From the IMG/VR virus record IMGVR_UViG_3300046318_000318: DNA of 64,000 nt, one strand, 5' to 3'. Every line of letters starts with the position of its first letter. Within the stretch, counting starts at the first letter, position 1. The notes beneath the pieces are model-generated. The model was not told where the DNA came from. It did no database searches and saw only the letters and a list, made by a program, of their open reading frames with translations. This DNA is from a virus. Its lineage: Duplodnaviria; Caudoviricetes. The position numbers and the translations under genes were made by a program. Shown here one piece after another: positions 1,962 through 50,876 of the stretch.

Positions 1962-2007
1962 ACGGGCCTCTTAAAGGTAAAAGATCATACCATACTACCA
2001 GCCGGTG

Positions 2008-2044
2008 AAAAAAGAAATACCCAGCTTTGGCCGGGTATTTCTTT
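2008..2044. terminator. intrinsic terminator hairpin
   Basis: AAAGAAATACCCAGC-TTTG-GCCGGGTATTTCTTT with A/T tracts. Confidence 0.75.
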
Positions 2045-2049
2045 ATGTA

Positions 2050-2673
2050 TCACTCACCAAAGATATCGGTAGGGTCACGACCCTCAGCCAAGATCTGTTG
2101 GATCTTATCCCATGTCAACAATATATCGTGACGTTCTTCTGTTGAAAGATCTTGATGACCTTCAAATAGTTCATCACAATACTGTTTAGCCACCCACTCA
2201 TACTTACCATCCACTTCAATGTCCTGGACCACACCATCCATCACCCTGCGGTAATAGTAGTGCTGATCATTACTTTGCTTAGGATCGATATCGATATAAG
2301 TGTCGCTGTAGCCATTGACGAGTTGTCTATGGTACATGTTTCGAAGGTCCGGCTGTGCCATGATGTAGTTTTGCATCATGGGTGTAGCGCTTCTCATACC
2401 TTCGATGTCATCTATCTGGATAATGACGTTAGGTTGATATAACCCACCGGCATGTCTGATAGCAGCTTTAGCTATCCTGATAGCTGTGTTATCATGGATT
2501 CTTGCATACAACTCTTTAGCACCTTGCATAAATCTTTGACCAGTTTCAGTCAGCGCATTACTGAACGACTGCATTTGGTTTTGGAAATACTGCAAAGTGC
2601 TTGGAGATTGATTTGGGAATGCAAGGTAATCAAAAGCCAAAGGTGAAGCTTCGATCACATTGATTTGATACAT
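2050..2673 (-). CDS. hypothetical protein, translationally coupled to RNAP exon 3
   Basis: ATG at 2673 overlaps the exon-3 stop (TAATG); preferred to the TTG at 2688. Confidence 0.8.
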   Translation of the reverse strand: MYQINVIEASPLAFDYLAFPNQSPSTLQYFQNQMQSFSNALTETGQRFMQGAKELYARIHDNTAIRIAKAAIRHAGGLYQPNVIIQIDDIEGMRSATPMMQNYIMAQPDLRNMYHRQLVNGYSDTYIDIDPKQSNDQHYYYRRVMDGVVQDIEVDGKYEWVAKQYCDELFEGHQDLSTEERHDILLTWDKIQQILAEGRDPTDIFGE

Positions 2674-2840
2674 TAACTCTCCAACCAAGATGAGATTGTT
2701 GCAATATTAGGCTTTGGGATACTTACGTTACCTGAAACCTGGAACGGCTTAGTCATCTGAAATATGTTAAACTCTGGTGAGAGAGGATACCACATATTAG
2801 ACATCTTTTCGTCAAGTGAGATAGAGACATTGAGAGCGTC
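2673..2840 (-). CDS. nvRNAP beta-prime N-terminal subunit, exon 3 (DALNVSISLDEK...SWLES*)
   Basis: 55 codons plus stop beginning with the last Asp of NADFDGD, preceded by intron terminal G; first 8 nt form P10 with intron 2. Confidence 0.88.
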   Translation of the reverse strand, partial: DALNVSISLDEKMSNMWYPLSPEFNIFQMTKPFQVSGNVSIPKPNIATISSWLES

Positions 2841-3185
2841 CATAACTACCTCACTCTAGCTTTAACTAAGTTCGCTAAACTTATTGATCTTGCTTAAGGA
2901 TCCTGATACTTTCATATCAGATTAGACTATATCTTCATCTTTCGATGCTCTTCGTTTCCACTCGCTTGAGTGTACTCCCATGTGGGATAGTCGTTGACCA
3001 CACTCCATGTAAGTATATATGTCTATACTTAGTTAGGAGCTTCGGTGCGGATTGCCCAATCCTTGTATCTTTTACCATACCCAGATAGTTACTCTGGCCA
3101 CTGCATATATTTCTATCGCAGTTTGGTGCACAAGGCTCTAAGGAGTTTCCCGCAATTAGAAGAGTTTAAACGACGGCAACACTCT
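2841..3185 (-). ncRNA. group I intron 2 (ORF-less, 345 nt) in the RNAP gene
   Basis: P AATTGCGGGAAA, Q AATCCGCA, R GTCAACGACTA, S AAGATATAGTC; P1 GACGGU/GCCGUC with U.G at the splice site; P10 AGAGUGUU/GACGCUCU; ends in G. Confidence 0.92.
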
Positions 3186-3206
3186 ACCGTCAAAATCAGC
3201 ATTTGG
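3186..3206 (-). CDS. nvRNAP beta-prime subunit, 21-nt micro-exon 2 (PNADFDG)
   Basis: CCA AAT GCT GAT TTT GAC GGT between two intron cores; restores HILTVRAPNADFDGD, same spacing as bacterial HPLVCAAYNADFDGD. Confidence 0.9.
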
Positions 3207-5197
3207 CTTATTGTCCAGTAAAGTCGCTCAGCTTCACAGCTTACCCTCTTTACCCGGTGCGCTTACACACCCACCTGTACTTTCATACAGGAACAGATCA
3301 TATCTTCATCCTTATTAAAGGATGCTCTCCGCTTCTTCCCTGCTTAGGGCTTTACTCGGTCGCAACTCCGATGATCGTTGAACTTTACGCATGGTTGATA
3401 AGAATCAACTTTAGCGTCTTAGCTGCTGATTACCCAATTCTTATATTTTTCAAACTATCACGCTCATCGTTTCCGATCACGTTGTAGTATATAAGACTCT
3501 AAAGGACTTCCCAGCAATTCAAAGAGATAACTTAGTCAATTACTCAACTAAGTGCCTTATCTCATCATTATTAAAATACAATGTCAATCGCCACACACCG
3601 CCTATCAATGCTTTTCTTCTAGCTATTGTAGGGATATATTGTCTAGCATACCCAAATTGCTGACTAATATCTATAGGACTTGTTATAATCCTAGTTTCGC
3701 CAGTTTCAACGTTTTCGATAAAATATCCGTTACCCCTAAAAGATCTTTTATCGAGACATAATTGTTTAAAGTACCTCAGCTCCTTATCGGTAAGATCTTT
3801 AAACTGTCCGTTGAAACTAAATTGCCAACCTTTAATCGGAATGTTCTTTAATCTTTTATTTTTAATAGATAGTTGAACACCCCATGAAACACCAGTTATT
3901 TTCTCACAAGCTGCCAGCGATTCAAATTTACGTTCTTTGCGTGTGAATATATTTCTAGCAGTAACTGGTATTTTTATTTGTAAATCTTCTAAGGATGGTT
4001 TTTCCTGAGGCCATGGTCTTGCATCTAATTTTCGTTTGAAACATAATCCGTCTGAATAGATTTTAATATCGGAAGATCTAAGTCTGACGGACACGGTTAG
4101 TTCAGAATATCCAAGTTTCAGAGAGCAATCCCTAGCACTTTTATATTCAGTCACCTCATCCGTGATTATGTTTTTAACAAGTATTGCTGAACCATACCTG
4201 AATTGATCGTACTCATTTTCTAAATTTTCATAATTTTTCCATTCTTTTAATTCAGATAGCCATTGAAACTGCATGTAATTTTCCCAAAGTTTACAACCGG
4301 GTTTTGTTTTTAACCGATGGTAAAGTAAATCATTACTCAAGCCTAATGCAATTGCGCATTGCGTCGGGTTATCATAAATAGTGATTTCATTGGTTTTAAC
4401 ATTTCTAGTTATGACGTCTATGGTATACTTTTTCTCATTTTCAAGAATTCTATTTACTTTTTCATCAGATCTATCACAATTCGAATAAATGACATTTCCT
4501 CTAGGTGTCACCCATTCTAAATTATCTAAGGTGTCAAAGCCAGGTATCTCATTTTTATGATTTACGTACAGCGATTCAACGTTTCTAGGATAATCTAGCC
4601 ATGCTAAGCACATAGCTCTGTGTCTGAAAAATTTGTAAGATGTATTCTCATTAAGGGAAACATCAGGAATACCTGAATAGGAATGGTAACCATCTCTATC
4701 ACAAAAAGCTTTTTTATCCACACCAGTTATCAAATTTCTAACTTTTCCTTCCTTTGTTATACCATATCTTGTAAAACCAGGAATATAAGCATGATCTTTG
4801 TGTACTGGATGTGATAAACCAACTGGAAATTTCCAAATCAAGTTGCTAGGATGAGAGTTATTAAAATCACCGTCCTCGAACATCAAGTGTAATAAATGCA
4901 CTTGACTTTCATGAACGTGAACGGGCTTAAAAGCCGAAGCTATGATAAACTCTATTGGATATAGACCAGGACCTCTTATCCAATCTAAGAAAATCAAAGT
5001 GCTTCCTGTTTCAGTTGAGATACACTCAATCTGAATGTTCTCTCGCGATATGACATCACCTTCTGAGTTAACAGAATAACGACCGTCAGACCAGGGTAGC
5101 GAAAGATAGTTTTGGGTTTGTAAATATTTACTAAGCATATATCCTTTCTATATAGAAAGGTATGCTAAACGGCGATTGACAATAATGATAAGAATTA
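3207..5197 (-). mobile_element. group I intron 1 (1991 nt) carrying an HNH homing endonuclease
   Basis: After the ORF: P AATTGCTGGGAA, Q AATCAGCAG, R GTTCAACGATCA, S AAGATATGATC (P7 GAUCA/UGAUC); exon ends in U (GCT); intron ends in G. Confidence 0.9.
3540..5138 (-). CDS. intron-encoded HNH homing endonuclease with C-terminal DNA-binding repeats
   Basis: VNHKNEIPGFDTLDNLEWVT HNH motif, degenerate first copy DGDFNNSHPSNLIW, repeats such as YKSARDCSLKLG and FESLAACEKITG. Confidence 0.88.
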   Translation of the reverse strand: MLSKYLQTQNYLSLPWSDGRYSVNSEGDVISRENIQIECISTETGSTLIFLDWIRGPGLYPIEFIIASAFKPVHVHESQVHLLHLMFEDGDFNNSHPSNLIWKFPVGLSHPVHKDHAYIPGFTRYGITKEGKVRNLITGVDKKAFCDRDGYHSYSGIPDVSLNENTSYKFFRHRAMCLAWLDYPRNVESLYVNHKNEIPGFDTLDNLEWVTPRGNVIYSNCDRSDEKVNRILENEKKYTIDVITRNVKTNEITIYDNPTQCAIALGLSNDLLYHRLKTKPGCKLWENYMQFQWLSELKEWKNYENLENEYDQFRYGSAILVKNIITDEVTEYKSARDCSLKLGYSELTVSVRLRSSDIKIYSDGLCFKRKLDARPWPQEKPSLEDLQIKIPVTARNIFTRKERKFESLAACEKITGVSWGVQLSIKNKRLKNIPIKGWQFSFNGQFKDLTDKELRYFKQLCLDKRSFRGNGYFIENVETGETRIITSPIDISQQFGYARQYIPTIARRKALIGGVWRLTLYFNNDEIRHLVE

Positions 5198-6439
5198 AGC
5201 GCGCACTGTTAAAATGTGCATTCCAATAGTGAGGTCATTTGGGTTCTTTTTGAACTTAGTAATCTTCACTCGTTGAGCCGACCCCTGCAAAAGGCTCGGA
5301 TTTCTTTGGAGACATACATACAAACCTTTATCAGGCGCTTCGTCTATCAGCTCCTGCATAAACCTTTCTAACAAGGGGTGGTGTTTGTTAGTATGTTTGT
5401 ATAGGAAACCAATAGAGTCATTCAGACCCATGCCGTAACGCCGCAGCTTATTCAACATGTGGATACGGTAAGCTGTGGTGGCCATACACCAAGGAGCTTC
5501 TATTTCATCATACTCTTTACCCGCTGTAATAGAGATGATAACTGCTCGGAATGAGAAGTTGGTTCTGGCTCCGAACATGTGTTTCCTGAAGTGACCGTGC
5601 TTATGAGCCATCAACAACAGGGTGTCGTTGTAGAAATCACAAAGCATGATCAAGGACTTAACTGTTCGGTTTTGCTTGGTCTTACTTGTCTGATCGTAAA
5701 AGTCTCTGTCAATAGACACCATCGTGTTGACAGCATTCACAGCCTTCATAATGGAAGGATCTGTGTATGTGCCTAGCGGTTGTGTATCAAAGATCAGGAC
5801 TATCTTGTTCGGCAAAGGCAGATACTCACTGAAAATTATCTTACGATAGTCTTTTAGCAAGGATTGAAGATAGTCTATCCTCTCACTCTTAAGCTCGAAC
5901 TTCTGAGTCTTAGGTGCAAACTCAGTCATGGAGAAGAGAGTATCCATGATGTAATCGAAATTAGTCACAAAGTAATTGTAACCGCGCTCGATATTGCACG
6001 TCATCAGTTTGGTCAGCACTTTGTCAGGTGTTTTAGCTGCTGTCGTATAGCTTGTGTTACAAAGCCATTCGATCACAGAGAACCCTGATTTGGTAAACCT
6101 CTTGATGAGCATCATGAAAACCACAGGAGAAATAAGCTTCTCTACCCCTACTGGTTGTTTGAGCCAGATGACTGGTTCGATATCTGACACAACTGAAGCT
6201 TTAACTTCAGTGTGACAGACTGGACAGATAGTACTCTTAGAATATTCACCTTTGGTATGTCCACATTGACAACTGGGAATCAGACTGATCTGATCACTAG
6301 AGAGATGTGTGGTAAGTTTCTCTTTGACAGCCTCACGTTCTTCAAGCGTAGAACACGCCATGTGGTTGATGAGGGTGGGGGTATGACGTAATGTATAAAA
6401 CATCTCGTCGTAGTTAACCAGTTCTTGGATAACAGGCAT
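5198..6439 (-). CDS. non-virion RNA polymerase beta-prime N-terminal subunit (phiKZ gp55-like), exon 1; spliced product 476 aa
   Basis: Zn finger CQCG...CPVC, FGARTNFSFRAVI, LQRNPSL, RVKITKFK; lies next to chimallin as in phiKZ. Confidence 0.9.
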
Positions 6440-6488
6440 GAGTTTCCTTTATGGTTGGTTGATGATACATTCAGACAGCGGTCACATA

Positions 6489-6497
6489 AAGTATATG
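6489..6497 (-). promoter_or_regulatory. candidate phage promoter core CATATACTT
   Basis: Same core upstream of chimallin (8563-8571) and in the longer repeats at 37136 and 47117; TATATACTT variant at 10965. Confidence 0.45.
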
Positions 6498-6523
6498 GTA
6501 TTAGTAAAATTAACAAACAGGAC

Positions 6524-6559
6524 AAAAAAAGATACACCAGCCGAAGCTGGTGTATCTTT
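6524..6559. terminator. intrinsic terminator with UUCG loop on the minus strand
   Basis: AAAGATACACCAGC-CGAA-GCTGGTGTATCTTT. Confidence 0.85.
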
Positions 6560-6583
6560 ATGTCAGATCCGTATCTCTACAGA

Positions 6584-8452
6584 TCAGTAGCGGTAACCAC
6601 CCATGTTGATGTAGTTCTGCATATGCTGAGGAGCCATGCCGAAACCCATGAACGATTGAGTAGGTGCCAGCAGACCAGCGTTGGCGAAACTTGCAACACC
6701 GCGTTGGTTGTTGAAGTCTGCACCAGACATTGGGCTGTTGATACGCACCATCAGGTTGCAAGCCTGAATACCCTTACGCAGAGCGTCCAGGAACGTAGCG
6801 CTGAAGGTCACTCGTTGAGCATAGCCTGTAAACACAGCGGACTCATTGGACATGCTGGAGATCATACGCTTGCGATCGGAGAGACGCTCTGCCAACGAGA
6901 TGTTGGTGTTCAGGTACGTTTCGGTGAACTGACGCAATGCATGCACATTGTTGGCACCAAGGATGTTGGCAGCTGCCAAGTAGTCGATGTCACGGATGTC
7001 ACGCTGAGCACCGTTGCGATCGGTGTAGTAACCCAGATGGACACGGTTACCCACATCCACGAACATCTGTGCGTTGTTCGGGAAATAGCGACCGAAGTTG
7101 CCAGCAGTCAGTTCCTGAGCAGCTTTGTACATGATGTCGTAAGCACCACCACCGCTTGCAGCAGCTGCACTGTACAGACCAGTATACCATGCCTGAGGAC
7201 CAGCTTCTGGGCAGTCAACAGCAACCATCAGACCAGGCTGAACCAGAGTGTTCAAGAACTGACCCAAGTTCTCAGTCGTAAAACTGGAAGACTTGGTGTC
7301 GAGGATGTTGCTGATACCAGTGGGTTGATTGTCAAAGTTGCCTTCGATGTTCAACGCACCTGCATCACGCAGATCCAAATCCTTAGTCATCTGGGGTCGG
7401 AAGATCTGGTAGTAGTTGTTGTTCAACGCCAGAGCATCCATGTTCGCCACTGCCAACAGCATGTTAGCTGGAGTGTATGCGTGAGCACTGGACAGAGTGG
7501 TGATCACAGCACGAGCTGCAAACTTCTGTGGCAAACGCTGTTGTGCAGGCATGTAGGGGTTGACCATGGGTTCACGAGGAGCCCAGAGCATTTCTACAAA
7601 GCCGCCAACTTCACTGATGCGAGTCTCACGACCGCCGCTGTTCAGACTGCGGTTCTGATTTTGGTTCTGATTGTTCTGAGCTGCAAAGCTCAGTTGGAAG
7701 TCAGAACGAATCAAGTTACCGACATCGTCAGCCACAGGTGTCGAACCAAAGGTCATGTTGATGACCAATTGTTGACCCGTAGGGATCTGCGACAGGTTCA
7801 GATCCTGGAACGTAGGAACCAGTTGAGACAACTCAGTACCGTTAGCCAAGCCAGCGTTCAGTGCCAGCTTATACACAGCAGCTTTGTCCTTCGTATTGAA
7901 AGTAGCTGGTACGACAGTGGCGTCGGTGAACCGCAGTTCGTGCTGAGGAAACGCACGACCAACAGCCGCCTTGGCTTTTGCAATCAAGATGTCGTCGAGA
8001 GCATCGCCCGCTACCCGATACAACTCGATTTGCTTTTGGTGGTGGTACTGCACCACAGGAGTGGGTTTGTCACCAGTTGCTTCGAGGATCAGCACATGGA
8101 ATGCTACCTTGTTAGGTACATCCTTCAGACGCATCGCCACGACCAGGCAAGAGAATGCCAGAGCCGTTTCGTTCTGGTTGTCCAGATCCAGAATGCTGAT
8201 CAGACTGTCAGAACTTGCGTTCTTGTAGATCTCAATAAGTGCGGTCTTGAGGTCGTTGTAAGCCTCAGACCCAATTGAGCGACCGATAGGGGCACCGAAG
8301 ATGTTACCGCCGGAACCGAAGTTCCAAGAAGATTTCACAGGTGCTTGTTGGGTAGCAGTAGCTGCTTGACCAGGAGAACCGGCTTGGGTGAAAGCGGTTG
8401 CTTCAGCAGAGGTTGCAGAAGCGGAAGAGTTGTTACCAGTATTGAGAGCCAT
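6584..8452 (-). CDS. chmA: chimallin, major phage nuclear shell protein (phiKZ gp54-like)
   Basis: 622 aa, low-complexity N-terminus then FGAPIGRSIGSE; host-like optimised codons; syntenic with the nvRNAP subunit. Confidence 0.85.
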   Translation of the reverse strand: MALNTGNNSSASATSAEATAFTQAGSPGQAATATQQAPVKSSWNFGSGGNIFGAPIGRSIGSEAYNDLKTALIEIYKNASSDSLISILDLDNQNETALAFSCLVVAMRLKDVPNKVAFHVLILEATGDKPTPVVQYHHQKQIELYRVAGDALDDILIAKAKAAVGRAFPQHELRFTDATVVPATFNTKDKAAVYKLALNAGLANGTELSQLVPTFQDLNLSQIPTGQQLVINMTFGSTPVADDVGNLIRSDFQLSFAAQNNQNQNQNRSLNSGGRETRISEVGGFVEMLWAPREPMVNPYMPAQQRLPQKFAARAVITTLSSAHAYTPANMLLAVANMDALALNNNYYQIFRPQMTKDLDLRDAGALNIEGNFDNQPTGISNILDTKSSSFTTENLGQFLNTLVQPGLMVAVDCPEAGPQAWYTGLYSAAAASGGGAYDIMYKAAQELTAGNFGRYFPNNAQMFVDVGNRVHLGYYTDRNGAQRDIRDIDYLAAANILGANNVHALRQFTETYLNTNISLAERLSDRKRMISSMSNESAVFTGYAQRVTFSATFLDALRKGIQACNLMVRINSPMSGADFNNQRGVASFANAGLLAPTQSFMGFGMAPQHMQNYINMGGYRY

Positions 8453-20314: not shown

Positions 20315-20626
20315 TGGTAGGCAGGATGAGATTCGAACTCACTATCTTCGGCTTCACATTTGTGTTAGTTTCCTAACTCTGTGGACTATATCACCATCCT
20401 TAACTTAATATTAGGATGTCGGGCGCTTTACTCTGTTATTAAGAAGATTCTACTTCTCAGATAGTCTCTGCACTTTCCTAGGGTATACCCTAAGCTTAGC
20501 TCAGTATTGCCGTCGTCATTATACGTTACGGTTTCACTGAATTCACCCGATTATTCAATACTGATTACTCAGTAAGGTCACCATTGAGATGAGGCCGCCG
20601 CTTATAACCCCTTAAGCTTCCCGCCT
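20315..20626 (-). tRNA. tRNA with CAU anticodon (probably Ile2), interrupted at 36/37; exons 20589-20626 and 20315-20354
   Basis: Acceptor AGGCGGG/CCTGCCT-A-CCA, loop CT-CAT|AA, T arm GTGAG-TTCGAAT-CTCAT; adjacent to tilS. Confidence 0.88.
20355..20588 (-). ncRNA. group I intron (IC3-like, 234 nt) in tRNA-CAU
   Basis: GAATTCAGTGAAACC, AATACTGAGCTAAGC, GTGCAGAGACTA, GATATAGTCC; P1 CAU/GUG; ends in G; layout like the Azoarcus tRNA-Ile intron. Confidence 0.9.
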
Positions 20627-33434: not shown

Positions 33435-33743
33435 TGGCCCGCTCCGGAATCGAACCGGAACGCCCCTTACGAAAGCGTCAGATTTTAAGTCTGATCTCTA
33501 CCACTGCAGTTTTCACTGCCACTTTAGTGTGTTTGTGGTCTGGACTATCCCTTCAACTACATCCTAAATGTTTAGCTGGGCGATTATAGTCTCTGCACGT
33601 CTTTCTATATTTCTATAGAAATTTCGCTCAGGATTGGCATCAGCAATTAACTGTTAAGCTTTCCCTGAATTTACGCCATTTTACTACATTATTTCTAATG
33701 TAGGACACATCAAATATATGTCTACCTATTTCATCAGCGGGCC
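33435..33743 (-). tRNA. tRNA-Leu(UAA) interrupted in the D arm at 25/26; exons 33718-33743 and 33435-33495; CCA not encoded
   Basis: GGCCCGC/GCGGGCC-A, GGTAGACAT|A, TCAGA-CTTAAAA-TCTGA, long variable arm, TCCGG-TTCGATT-CCGGA. Confidence 0.9.
33496..33717 (-). ncRNA. group I intron (IC3-like, 222 nt) in the tRNA-Leu D arm
   Basis: AAATTCAGGGAAA, AATCCTGAGC, GTGCAGAGACTA, GGATAGTCC; P1 GACAU/GUGUC, P10 AUCAGA/UUUGAU; ends in G. Confidence 0.92.
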
Positions 33744-34350: not shown

Positions 34351-34425
34351 TGGTGCCGGATGTCTGATTTGAACAGACGACCTATCGCTTACAAGGCGAG
34401 TGCTCTACCCCTGAGCTAATCCGGC
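34351..34425 (-). tRNA. tRNA-Thr(UGU), no intron
   Basis: GCCGGAT/ATCCGGC-A-CCA, loop CT-TGT-AA, TTCAAAT T loop. Confidence 0.93.
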
Positions 34426-50150: not shown

Positions 50151-50517
50151 GATACACGTAGAGGTTATTGGGTTCTGTGATGGTCATACCTCTTATCTTG
50201 ATAGGATCGAGATTAACTTTTTGGAGTCTGTCAACGATTATCTGATAGAGCTGATCGTAAGCTTCCTCAAATGCTTCTGTGGTTTCATGAAGCAAAAGAG
50301 CAGTCAGTATGTCTGTAAGAGCTTTGTGCGAAGGTAAGGACTTATGCTTTTTAAGCTTGTTGATCAGGATTCTATTCCTAAGCAGACAAAGCCAGATAAG
50401 ATTCATCCAATCTTCGTTACTCATTTCAGACTCTGTATCCAACTGGACCAAATCCAGATTGGTAATCGCAACAGGTATGTCTATTACATACAGCTTCAGT
50501 TTTGATTCAGGTGACAT
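50143..50517 (-). CDS. hypothetical protein
   Basis: 124 aa, coupled. Confidence 0.65.
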   Translation of the reverse strand: MSPESKLKLYVIDIPVAITNLDLVQLDTESEMSNEDWMNLIWLCLLRNRILINKLKKHKSLPSHKALTDILTALLLHETTEAFEEAYDQLYQIIVDRLQKVNLDPIKIRGMTITEPNNLYVYHV

Positions 50518-50876
50518 GGTGACCTCATAAGAACTGTGGTGGGGTCAACCCAACCAACGAAATAGGATTCACCAGGGTCTACTCCGTGAGGAGCTTGTTT
50601 TATATTGGCTTGGTCCAACGATATTTTCATATCATCTACCCAGTAGTCAATACACTGTAGTAAATACCCTTCGTAAAAGATGTCTGGATTCTCATCTATT
50701 GTGCTTTCTATGGCTTGCCAGACATACTCTTCATCATCAAGATTACCAGGTACTGTCAGTATATGCTGAACAAGATTATTCAGCGGGACTGCTGAGTACA
50801 TGGGGTGAAGCTCTTCCACAGTTCTGTAATACCCTAACTCAGATCTGAGGTCTAAGGTGTACAGAGTCGGAGTCAT
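50496..50876 (-). CDS. hypothetical protein
   Basis: 126 aa, coupled. Confidence 0.65.
   Translation of the reverse strand: MTPTLYTLDLRSELGYYRTVEELHPMYSAVPLNNLVQHILTVPGNLDDEEYVWQAIESTIDENPDIFYEGYLLQCIDYWVDDMKISLDQANIKQAPHGVDPGESYFVGWVDPTTVLMRSPCHLNQN

Follow-up and report, generated by a model that had tools for sequence, protein, structure and literature searches.

Two group I introns in a phage RNA polymerase gene, separated by a micro-exon of only 21 nt, raise the question of whether each intron is simply removed on its own or whether the micro-exon is also skipped, yielding an in-frame subunit that lacks part of its active site. The gene lies in the window, the 64,000-nt stretch of viral DNA (Duplodnaviria; Caudoviricetes; IMG/VR virus record IMGVR_UViG_3300046318_000318) that was analyzed here. 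An earlier note on this DNA had suggested that splicing order or fidelity could set the ratio of active, truncated and catalytically dead isoforms, which would be alternative splicing by ribozymes alone.

The gene encodes an RNA polymerase beta-prime subunit of the phiKZ gp55 type and is read from the minus strand, as are all of its parts listed below. Exon 1 (6439-5198, an ORF call) encodes the N-terminal half of the non-virion RNA polymerase (nvRNAP) beta-prime subunit in 414 codons and ends with GTG CGC GCT (Ala), or ILTVRA in the protein. Its product matched PHROG 2987 ("RNA polymerase beta subunit") with an E value of 1.4e-115; the upstream neighbor gene (6584-8452) matched the nuclear shell protein family in PHROG; and the protein of a close intron-less relative (P0001) matched chain A of 7OGP, the PHIKZ055/PHIKZ056.1 subunit of the solved phiKZ non-virion polymerase (E 4.4e-65). 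By these three matches, the gene is the orthologue of gp55 in a jumbo phage that forms a nucleus. Intron 1 (5197-3207, 1991 nt) starts with UAAUUC, which contains an in-frame stop codon, ends with AAG, and carries a gene for a 532-aa HNH-type homing endonuclease (5138-3540; ORF call and PHROG match). It is followed by the micro-exon (3206-3186, 21 nt, encoding PNADFDG) and by intron 2 (3185-2841, 345 nt), which has no ORF, starts with AGAGUGUU GCCGUC and ends with UAUG. Exon 3 (2840-2673) consists of 55 codons plus a stop codon and starts with GAC GCT CTC (DALNVS), the GAC encoding the third catalytic aspartate. Because TAA follows exon 1 directly, unspliced RNA would give a 414-aa product, the truncated form anticipated in the earlier note.

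The three exons joined together encode a 476-aa protein with an intact NADFDGD, in the context APNADFDGDAL. The NADFDGD of multisubunit polymerases holds the catalytic magnesium. Over both junctions the joined protein aligned without gaps to the intron-less orthologues FLC9 gp381 (Burkholderia phage) and RP12 ORF287 (Ralstonia phage), with ILTVRAPNADFDGDALNVS in the window opposite ILDVKGLNADFDGDQLNFT. This fixes the gene model of a 476-aa catalytic subunit, in place of which annotation would list a 414-aa fragment and small ORFs. A search of cultured-phage DNA for near-identical sequence gave nothing useful. Just downstream of the gene at 2050-2688, a GC-rich hairpin with A and T runs on either side (window 2000-2060) looks like a two-way intrinsic terminator; the only Rfam match in this interval was to an sRNA, well below threshold (28.3 bits vs. 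114) and probably spurious.

Evidence for splicing came from public sequencing runs. The window DNA is contained in 24 of them, nearly all freshwater metagenomes, two being RNA libraries, and assembled contigs of four runs (X1, X20, X23, and X24) were compared over positions 2000-6600. One 336-nt contig from RNA run X23 (depth 19.8) carried the joints 2840>3186 and 3206>5198, which skip 345 and 1991 nt, respectively, and retained the 21-nt micro-exon between them. Neither joint was present in the DNA runs X1 and X20, whose contigs pass through the intron-exon borders. The X23 contig is an exactly spliced message from which both introns were precisely removed, as observed in one assembled contig of one run, and it provides environmental RNA evidence that both introns are excised exactly in nature.

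A joined sequence of this kind might also come from an intron-less sister strain, either as its transcript or as contaminating DNA. Intron-less alleles do occur in nature (contig L005, below), RNA libraries can contain DNA, and X23 also covers intron and endonuclease sequence. However, the X23 contig differs from exon 1 of the window by 1 letter in 175, whereas the known intron-less allele has only ∼85% protein identity; the bases immediately before the joints are T5198 and T3186, in place of the C, G or A of intron-less alleles; and the DNA runs X1 and X20 contain only the intron-bearing form. We therefore regard a sister strain as a very improbable source of the contig.

Other joints found in the contigs (2941>3136, 2997>3132, 3312>3375 and others) were rejected as alternative splicing, as they belong to related introns from other loci or organisms. 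Between 2940 and 3440, many contigs of the four runs match conserved intron cores and then diverge, with loose contig ends at 3058, 3375, 3431, and 3436; since such contigs match the cores only, a large family of similar introns, residing at other loci or in other phages, would be present in the same waters. RNA run X24 contained only conserved core pieces of such related introns and was uninformative for the polymerase gene. The endonuclease-bearing intron 1 was also detected, at ∼97% identity, in a wastewater run from 2017.

Both introns were recognized by the Rfam group I model RF00028 (threshold 50 bits), intron 1 with 68.7 bits at 3584-3274 and intron 2 with 83.7 bits at 3195-2903. Each ends with the terminal G at its 3′ splice site (AAG at 3207 and AUG at 2841, respectively), in agreement with the RNA joints. 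In intron 2, P1 is formed by GACGGU (3191-3186), the 6 nt at the end of the micro-exon, and GCCGUC (3177-3172), with a U.G wobble at the 5′ splice site. An 8-bp P10 is formed by AGAGUGUU (3185-3178) and GACGCUCU (2840-2833), the latter being the first 8 nt of exon 3; its energy was reached by 2 to 6 of 1000 guide shuffles. Orthologues were available from a viral contig (L003, 77% protein identity to the window) and a metagenome contig (L004, 82%). The L003 helices, P1 GAUGGU/GCCAUC and P10 AGAGUAUU/GAUGCUCU, are each changed on both sides; L004 shares the P1 double change, from C-G to U-A, and has 7 of the 8 P10 pairs intact. Across the intron, 19 of 107 predicted pairs survive double changes, including one in P1 and four in P3, in a comparison of only three orthologues. 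This covariation argues strongly that P1 and P10 of intron 2 are real, and the guide proposed in the earlier note, which used the last 6 nt of the micro-exon for P1 together with an 8-bp P10, has thus held up in relatives through changes on both strands. Removal of intron 2 would be guided by these two helices, P1 (6 bp) with the micro-exon end and P10 (8 bp) with exon 3.

The guide of intron 1 is differently built. The 5′ strand of its P1 (G5200, C5199, U5198 at the splice site, and U5197) is extended by strands at 5193-5182 and 5181-5171; the 3′ strand (3592-3554) comprises 3592-3582, 3571-3560 and the internal guide AGGC (3557-3554) directly before P2. Cofolding of these long-range strands gave −28.2 kcal/mol vs. 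−10.2 ± 3.5 kcal/mol for shuffles, none of 200 of which reached the native value. These long-range helices place the endonuclease gene in an expanded P1 loop. The P1 core is GCU/GGC with U5198 opposite G3556, a register that we infer from L003 (GUGCU/GGCAU) and L004. In the vicinity of the splice site no more than 3-4 bases pair, with a C.A mismatch at position −4 in the window, which makes this a weak P1 by group I standards; the ribozyme may need help or splice inefficiently. The P2 pairing is kept through a double change in L004. As for P10, which the earlier note had been unable to find in intron 1, the sequence 5′ of the guide paired with the micro-exon at −1.0 kcal/mol, a value reached by 742 of 1000 shuffles and not significant, so its absence is borne out. 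An alternative guide, GGUGUGUG (3599-3592), was discarded, since pairing there would run across the long-range helices, which are strongly supported, and neither L003 nor L004 conserves the sequence. Intron 1, having no P10, would thus be guided by a short P1 (GCU/GGC) that is extended by two long helices at the base of the loop with the endonuclease gene.

The endonuclease ORF matched two PHROG families of HNH endonucleases (PHROG 59, E 8.5e-15; PHROG 959, E 4e-12) and, weakly, NUMOD1, and it has its own Shine-Dalgarno sequence. The ORF is absent from the same-site introns of L003 and L004, and the site is empty in L005 and in a further relative, L006; this sporadic occurrence of both ORF and intron is consistent with mobility, with homing presumably carried out by the HNH enzyme. 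A predicted hairpin on the minus strand (5122-5152, centroid −12.7 kcal/mol) buries the Shine-Dalgarno sequence and AUG of the endonuclease gene; the whole 96-nt stretch folds no better than shuffles (z −0.72). Translational masking is known for the intron endonucleases of phage T4, and the hairpin would resemble it.

We then considered what skipping would produce and how it could occur. Joining 5198 to 2840 keeps the frame (ILTVRA/DALNVS) and gives a 469-aa protein without PNADFDG, thereby removing two of the three metal-binding aspartates. The 7-codon micro-exon and its in-frame deletion, as described in the earlier note, were thus confirmed on the minus strand. When exon 1 was placed on the guide of intron 2, no productive pairing with the terminal U was found; because of this misfit, a skip would need the intron 1 ribozyme or a hybrid fold to act at the 3′ splice site of intron 2. 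The two introns could exchange their P3 strands (hybrid −6.6 vs. cognate −6.2 kcal/mol) but not their P7 strands (hybrids −1.3 and +0.2 vs. cognate −5.9 kcal/mol). A hybrid made of P1-P6 from intron 1 and P7-P9 from intron 2 would need only the P3 match and is possible on paper.

If skipping takes place, it would be at most an unregulated side reaction, in which exon 1, after the first step of intron 1, attacks the 3′ splice site of intron 2, possibly through the hybrid fold just described, and a minority of transcripts would then encode the in-frame subunit without PNADFDG. Several features make such a reaction conceivable: intron 1 lacks a significant P10 that would hold the micro-exon, the P3 strands can be exchanged, the two ribozymes lie within ∼700 nt of one another in the transcript, and skipping has been measured in phage SIOphi (PMC11878797) and, according to a secondary account, reported for phage Twort (PMC3073962). 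The RNA nevertheless speaks against it. No 2840>5198 joint was present in the contigs of the four runs, and the spliced contig is unbroken across both junctions; assembled contigs drop rare variants, so a rare skipped form could have been missed. The structural evidence is also unfavorable, as the two introns are only ∼57% alike and have unlike 3′ tails, the hybrid P7 is unstable, and the proper partner strands of each intron are transcribed first. The sequence 5′ of the intron 1 guide paired with exon 3 at −5.5 kcal/mol, which 121 of 1000 shuffles also reached (not significant). In addition, no VRA/DALN skip junction was found among 5.8 billion DNA-derived proteins queried with exon 3 at longer and near lengths and with the end of exon 1 at shorter lengths; every protein retrieved was a JGI entry encoded by DNA with or without the introns. 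On balance, skipping as a side reaction is possible and rather unlikely. Beyond this possibility, nothing in the present data supports exon skipping.

The relatives bear on whether the arrangement could have a purpose. Intron insertions were scored at four sites, A (QRN/PSL), B (VRA/PNAD), C (PNAD/FDG) and D (FDG/DAL). The window has introns at B and D only; L003 and L004 have all four, none with an ORF; L006 (91% identity over exon 3) has introns at A and C only; and L005 (85% identity over exon 3) has none. Introns at the same site are 76-96% identical among relatives, compared with the ∼57% between introns 1 and 2 of the window. At sites B and D, the preceding codon has a final T only in the presence of an intron (GCT vs. 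GCG or GCC; GGT vs. GGC or GGA). All four sites, and the intron site of phiKZ, follow a complete codon ending in U (phase 0), so any exon between two of them is a multiple of three. An in-frame skip therefore carries no extra meaning, as phase-0 insertion makes it automatic, and a length of exactly 7 codons is nothing more than would be expected.

Most orthologues in cultured phages are uninterrupted. Among the exceptions, in Xanthomonas phage LucasX a group I intron that lacks annotation (54.7 bits; L007:1278-1700) directly precedes PNADFDGD, at the intron 1 site, and the exons of the gene appear in the annotation as two hypothetical proteins; in Serratia phage KpGz_1 (L008), an insertion adjoining ADFDGD gave no Rfam match. 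In the four-intron genes (L003:7144-8664 and L004:6144-7647), the introns divide the codons of the active site between one micro-exon of 12 nt (PNAD) and another of 9 nt (FDG). Since 6 of the 9 nt of FDG form P1 of the next intron, two folded ribozymes could hardly coexist there, and splicing is probably sequential. At L004:6564-6600, AGAGC, 5′ of the intron B guide, can pair with GCUCU of the final exon (L004:7648-7659), three introns away; the pairing has −7.6 kcal/mol, was reached by 3 of 1000 shuffles in one of eight tests, and involves the same motif as the P10 guide of intron D. This match could be due to chance, introns could have exchanged sequence, or the pairing could favor skipping in that phage. 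The window itself contains two further group I introns on the minus strand, at 20362-20615 (87.7 bits) and 33519-33727 (59.7 bits), along with a tRNA at 34354-34425, and this phage is unusually rich in introns.

In the light of these relatives, programmed alternative splicing, in which splicing order or fidelity would set the proportions of active, truncated and dead beta-prime and so tune polymerase activity, is highly implausible. The in-frame skip would indeed remove two catalytic aspartates, the unspliced RNA does stop right after exon 1, and regulated skipping in Twort has been speculated on in reviews (PMC3073962, a secondary account). Yet an in-frame length comes automatically with phase-0 sites; the pair of introns is not a conserved layout, with zero, two (at different sites) or four introns in relatives whose proteins are 77-85% identical; a single intron or none suffices for phiKZ and most cultured relatives; no conserved pairing between exon 1 and exon 3 was found; and the contigs of the four runs lack the skip junction. 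A still more elaborate proposal, that ribozyme-only skipping between these dissimilar introns makes a controlled dose of beta-prime without its metal-binding loop, which would poison or titrate the nvRNAP and time late transcription in the phage nucleus, strains belief to the same degree. A measurable and regulated dead isoform, if it existed, would be interesting; alternative splicing by ribozymes alone would not be a new concept, because skipping between tandem group I introns has been documented and published for other phages.

We concluded that the locus most probably arose from unrelated mobile group I introns at neighboring homing sites, which splice correctly and leave the micro-exon as a by-product. 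According to this reading, two mobile introns would have settled at adjacent sites in the most conserved part of the nvRNAP beta-prime gene: intron 1, whose P1 loop contains a gene for an HNH homing endonuclease, between Ala and Pro before NADFDGD, and intron 2 between Gly and the last Asp, without an ORF. Each ribozyme would excise itself, presumably without helper proteins, to give the 476-aa subunit with intact NADFDGD, and the 21-nt exon would simply be what two independent insertions left between them. Group I introns need a U at the 5′ splice site, and insertion behind codons with a final U would account for the in-frame length of this exon. That relatives carry no introns, two at other sites, or four indicates a pile-up of mobile elements rather than a designed switch. 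The NADFDGD-coding stretch of gp55-type genes can thus be viewed as a crowded landing strip for mobile introns in which at least five phase-0 sites have been used, and the range of zero to four introns among close relatives might be useful for studies of homing-site competition in jumbo phages.

Tandem group I introns with exon skipping have been described in other phages. The Staphylococcus phage Twort gene orf142 has three group I introns and gives transcripts that lack an internal exon (Landthaler and Shub, 1999, as summarized in PMC3073962 and PMC11878797). Like the window, Twort carries several group I introns in one phage gene, and it is a precedent for the skipping idea (PMC3073962). 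In that secondary account the Twort introns are described as similar to one another, in contrast to the two dissimilar introns of the window; the gene is a structural gene and the introns do not interrupt a polymerase active site; and skipping was observed in Twort, which is not the case in the window. In Bacillus phage SIOphi, nanopore cDNA sequencing detected joining of the 5′ site of a first intron to the 3′ site of a second; 47% of the transcripts of one gene skip, and skipping was dominant in vitro in another (PMC11878797). The terminase and polymerase genes of SIOphi and the small exon of phiNIT1 rNDPL share with the window the arrangement of tandem group I introns around small internal exons (PMC11878797). 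They belong to another phage family and other genes, and skipping was measured there, whereas only the complete splice was seen in contigs for the window.

Two further known systems concern phage RNA polymerase genes. The gp210 intron of PhiPA3 interrupts a virion RNA polymerase (vRNAP) beta gene, and a competitive role was shown for it by experiment (Birkholz et al., 2024; PMC11620839). Both PhiPA3 and the window have an HNH homing endonuclease in a group I intron at the catalytic aspartates of a chimallivirus RNA polymerase gene; in PhiPA3, however, a single intron lies in a different, virion beta-like subunit. The other is phiKZ gp55/gp56/gp56.1, the same gene as in the window. There too the gene for the nuclear shell protein is the neighbor, a group I intron with an HNH gene (gp56) in its 5′ part is inserted inside the NADFDGD-coding segment, and the joined gp55/gp56.1 product is chain A of the solved polymerase 7OGP. 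The phiKZ intron (L010:1169-1540, phiKZ 50168-50539; RF00028, 75.6 bits) is the only one in its gene and lies at PN/ADFDGD, 6 nt from the intron 1 site of the window, whereas the window has two introns, at A/P and G/D, and hence a lone 21-nt exon. Splicing of phiKZ was not seen in a long-read study (PMC10914365), in contrast to the window's gene, for which the joined RNA was seen in the X23 contig.
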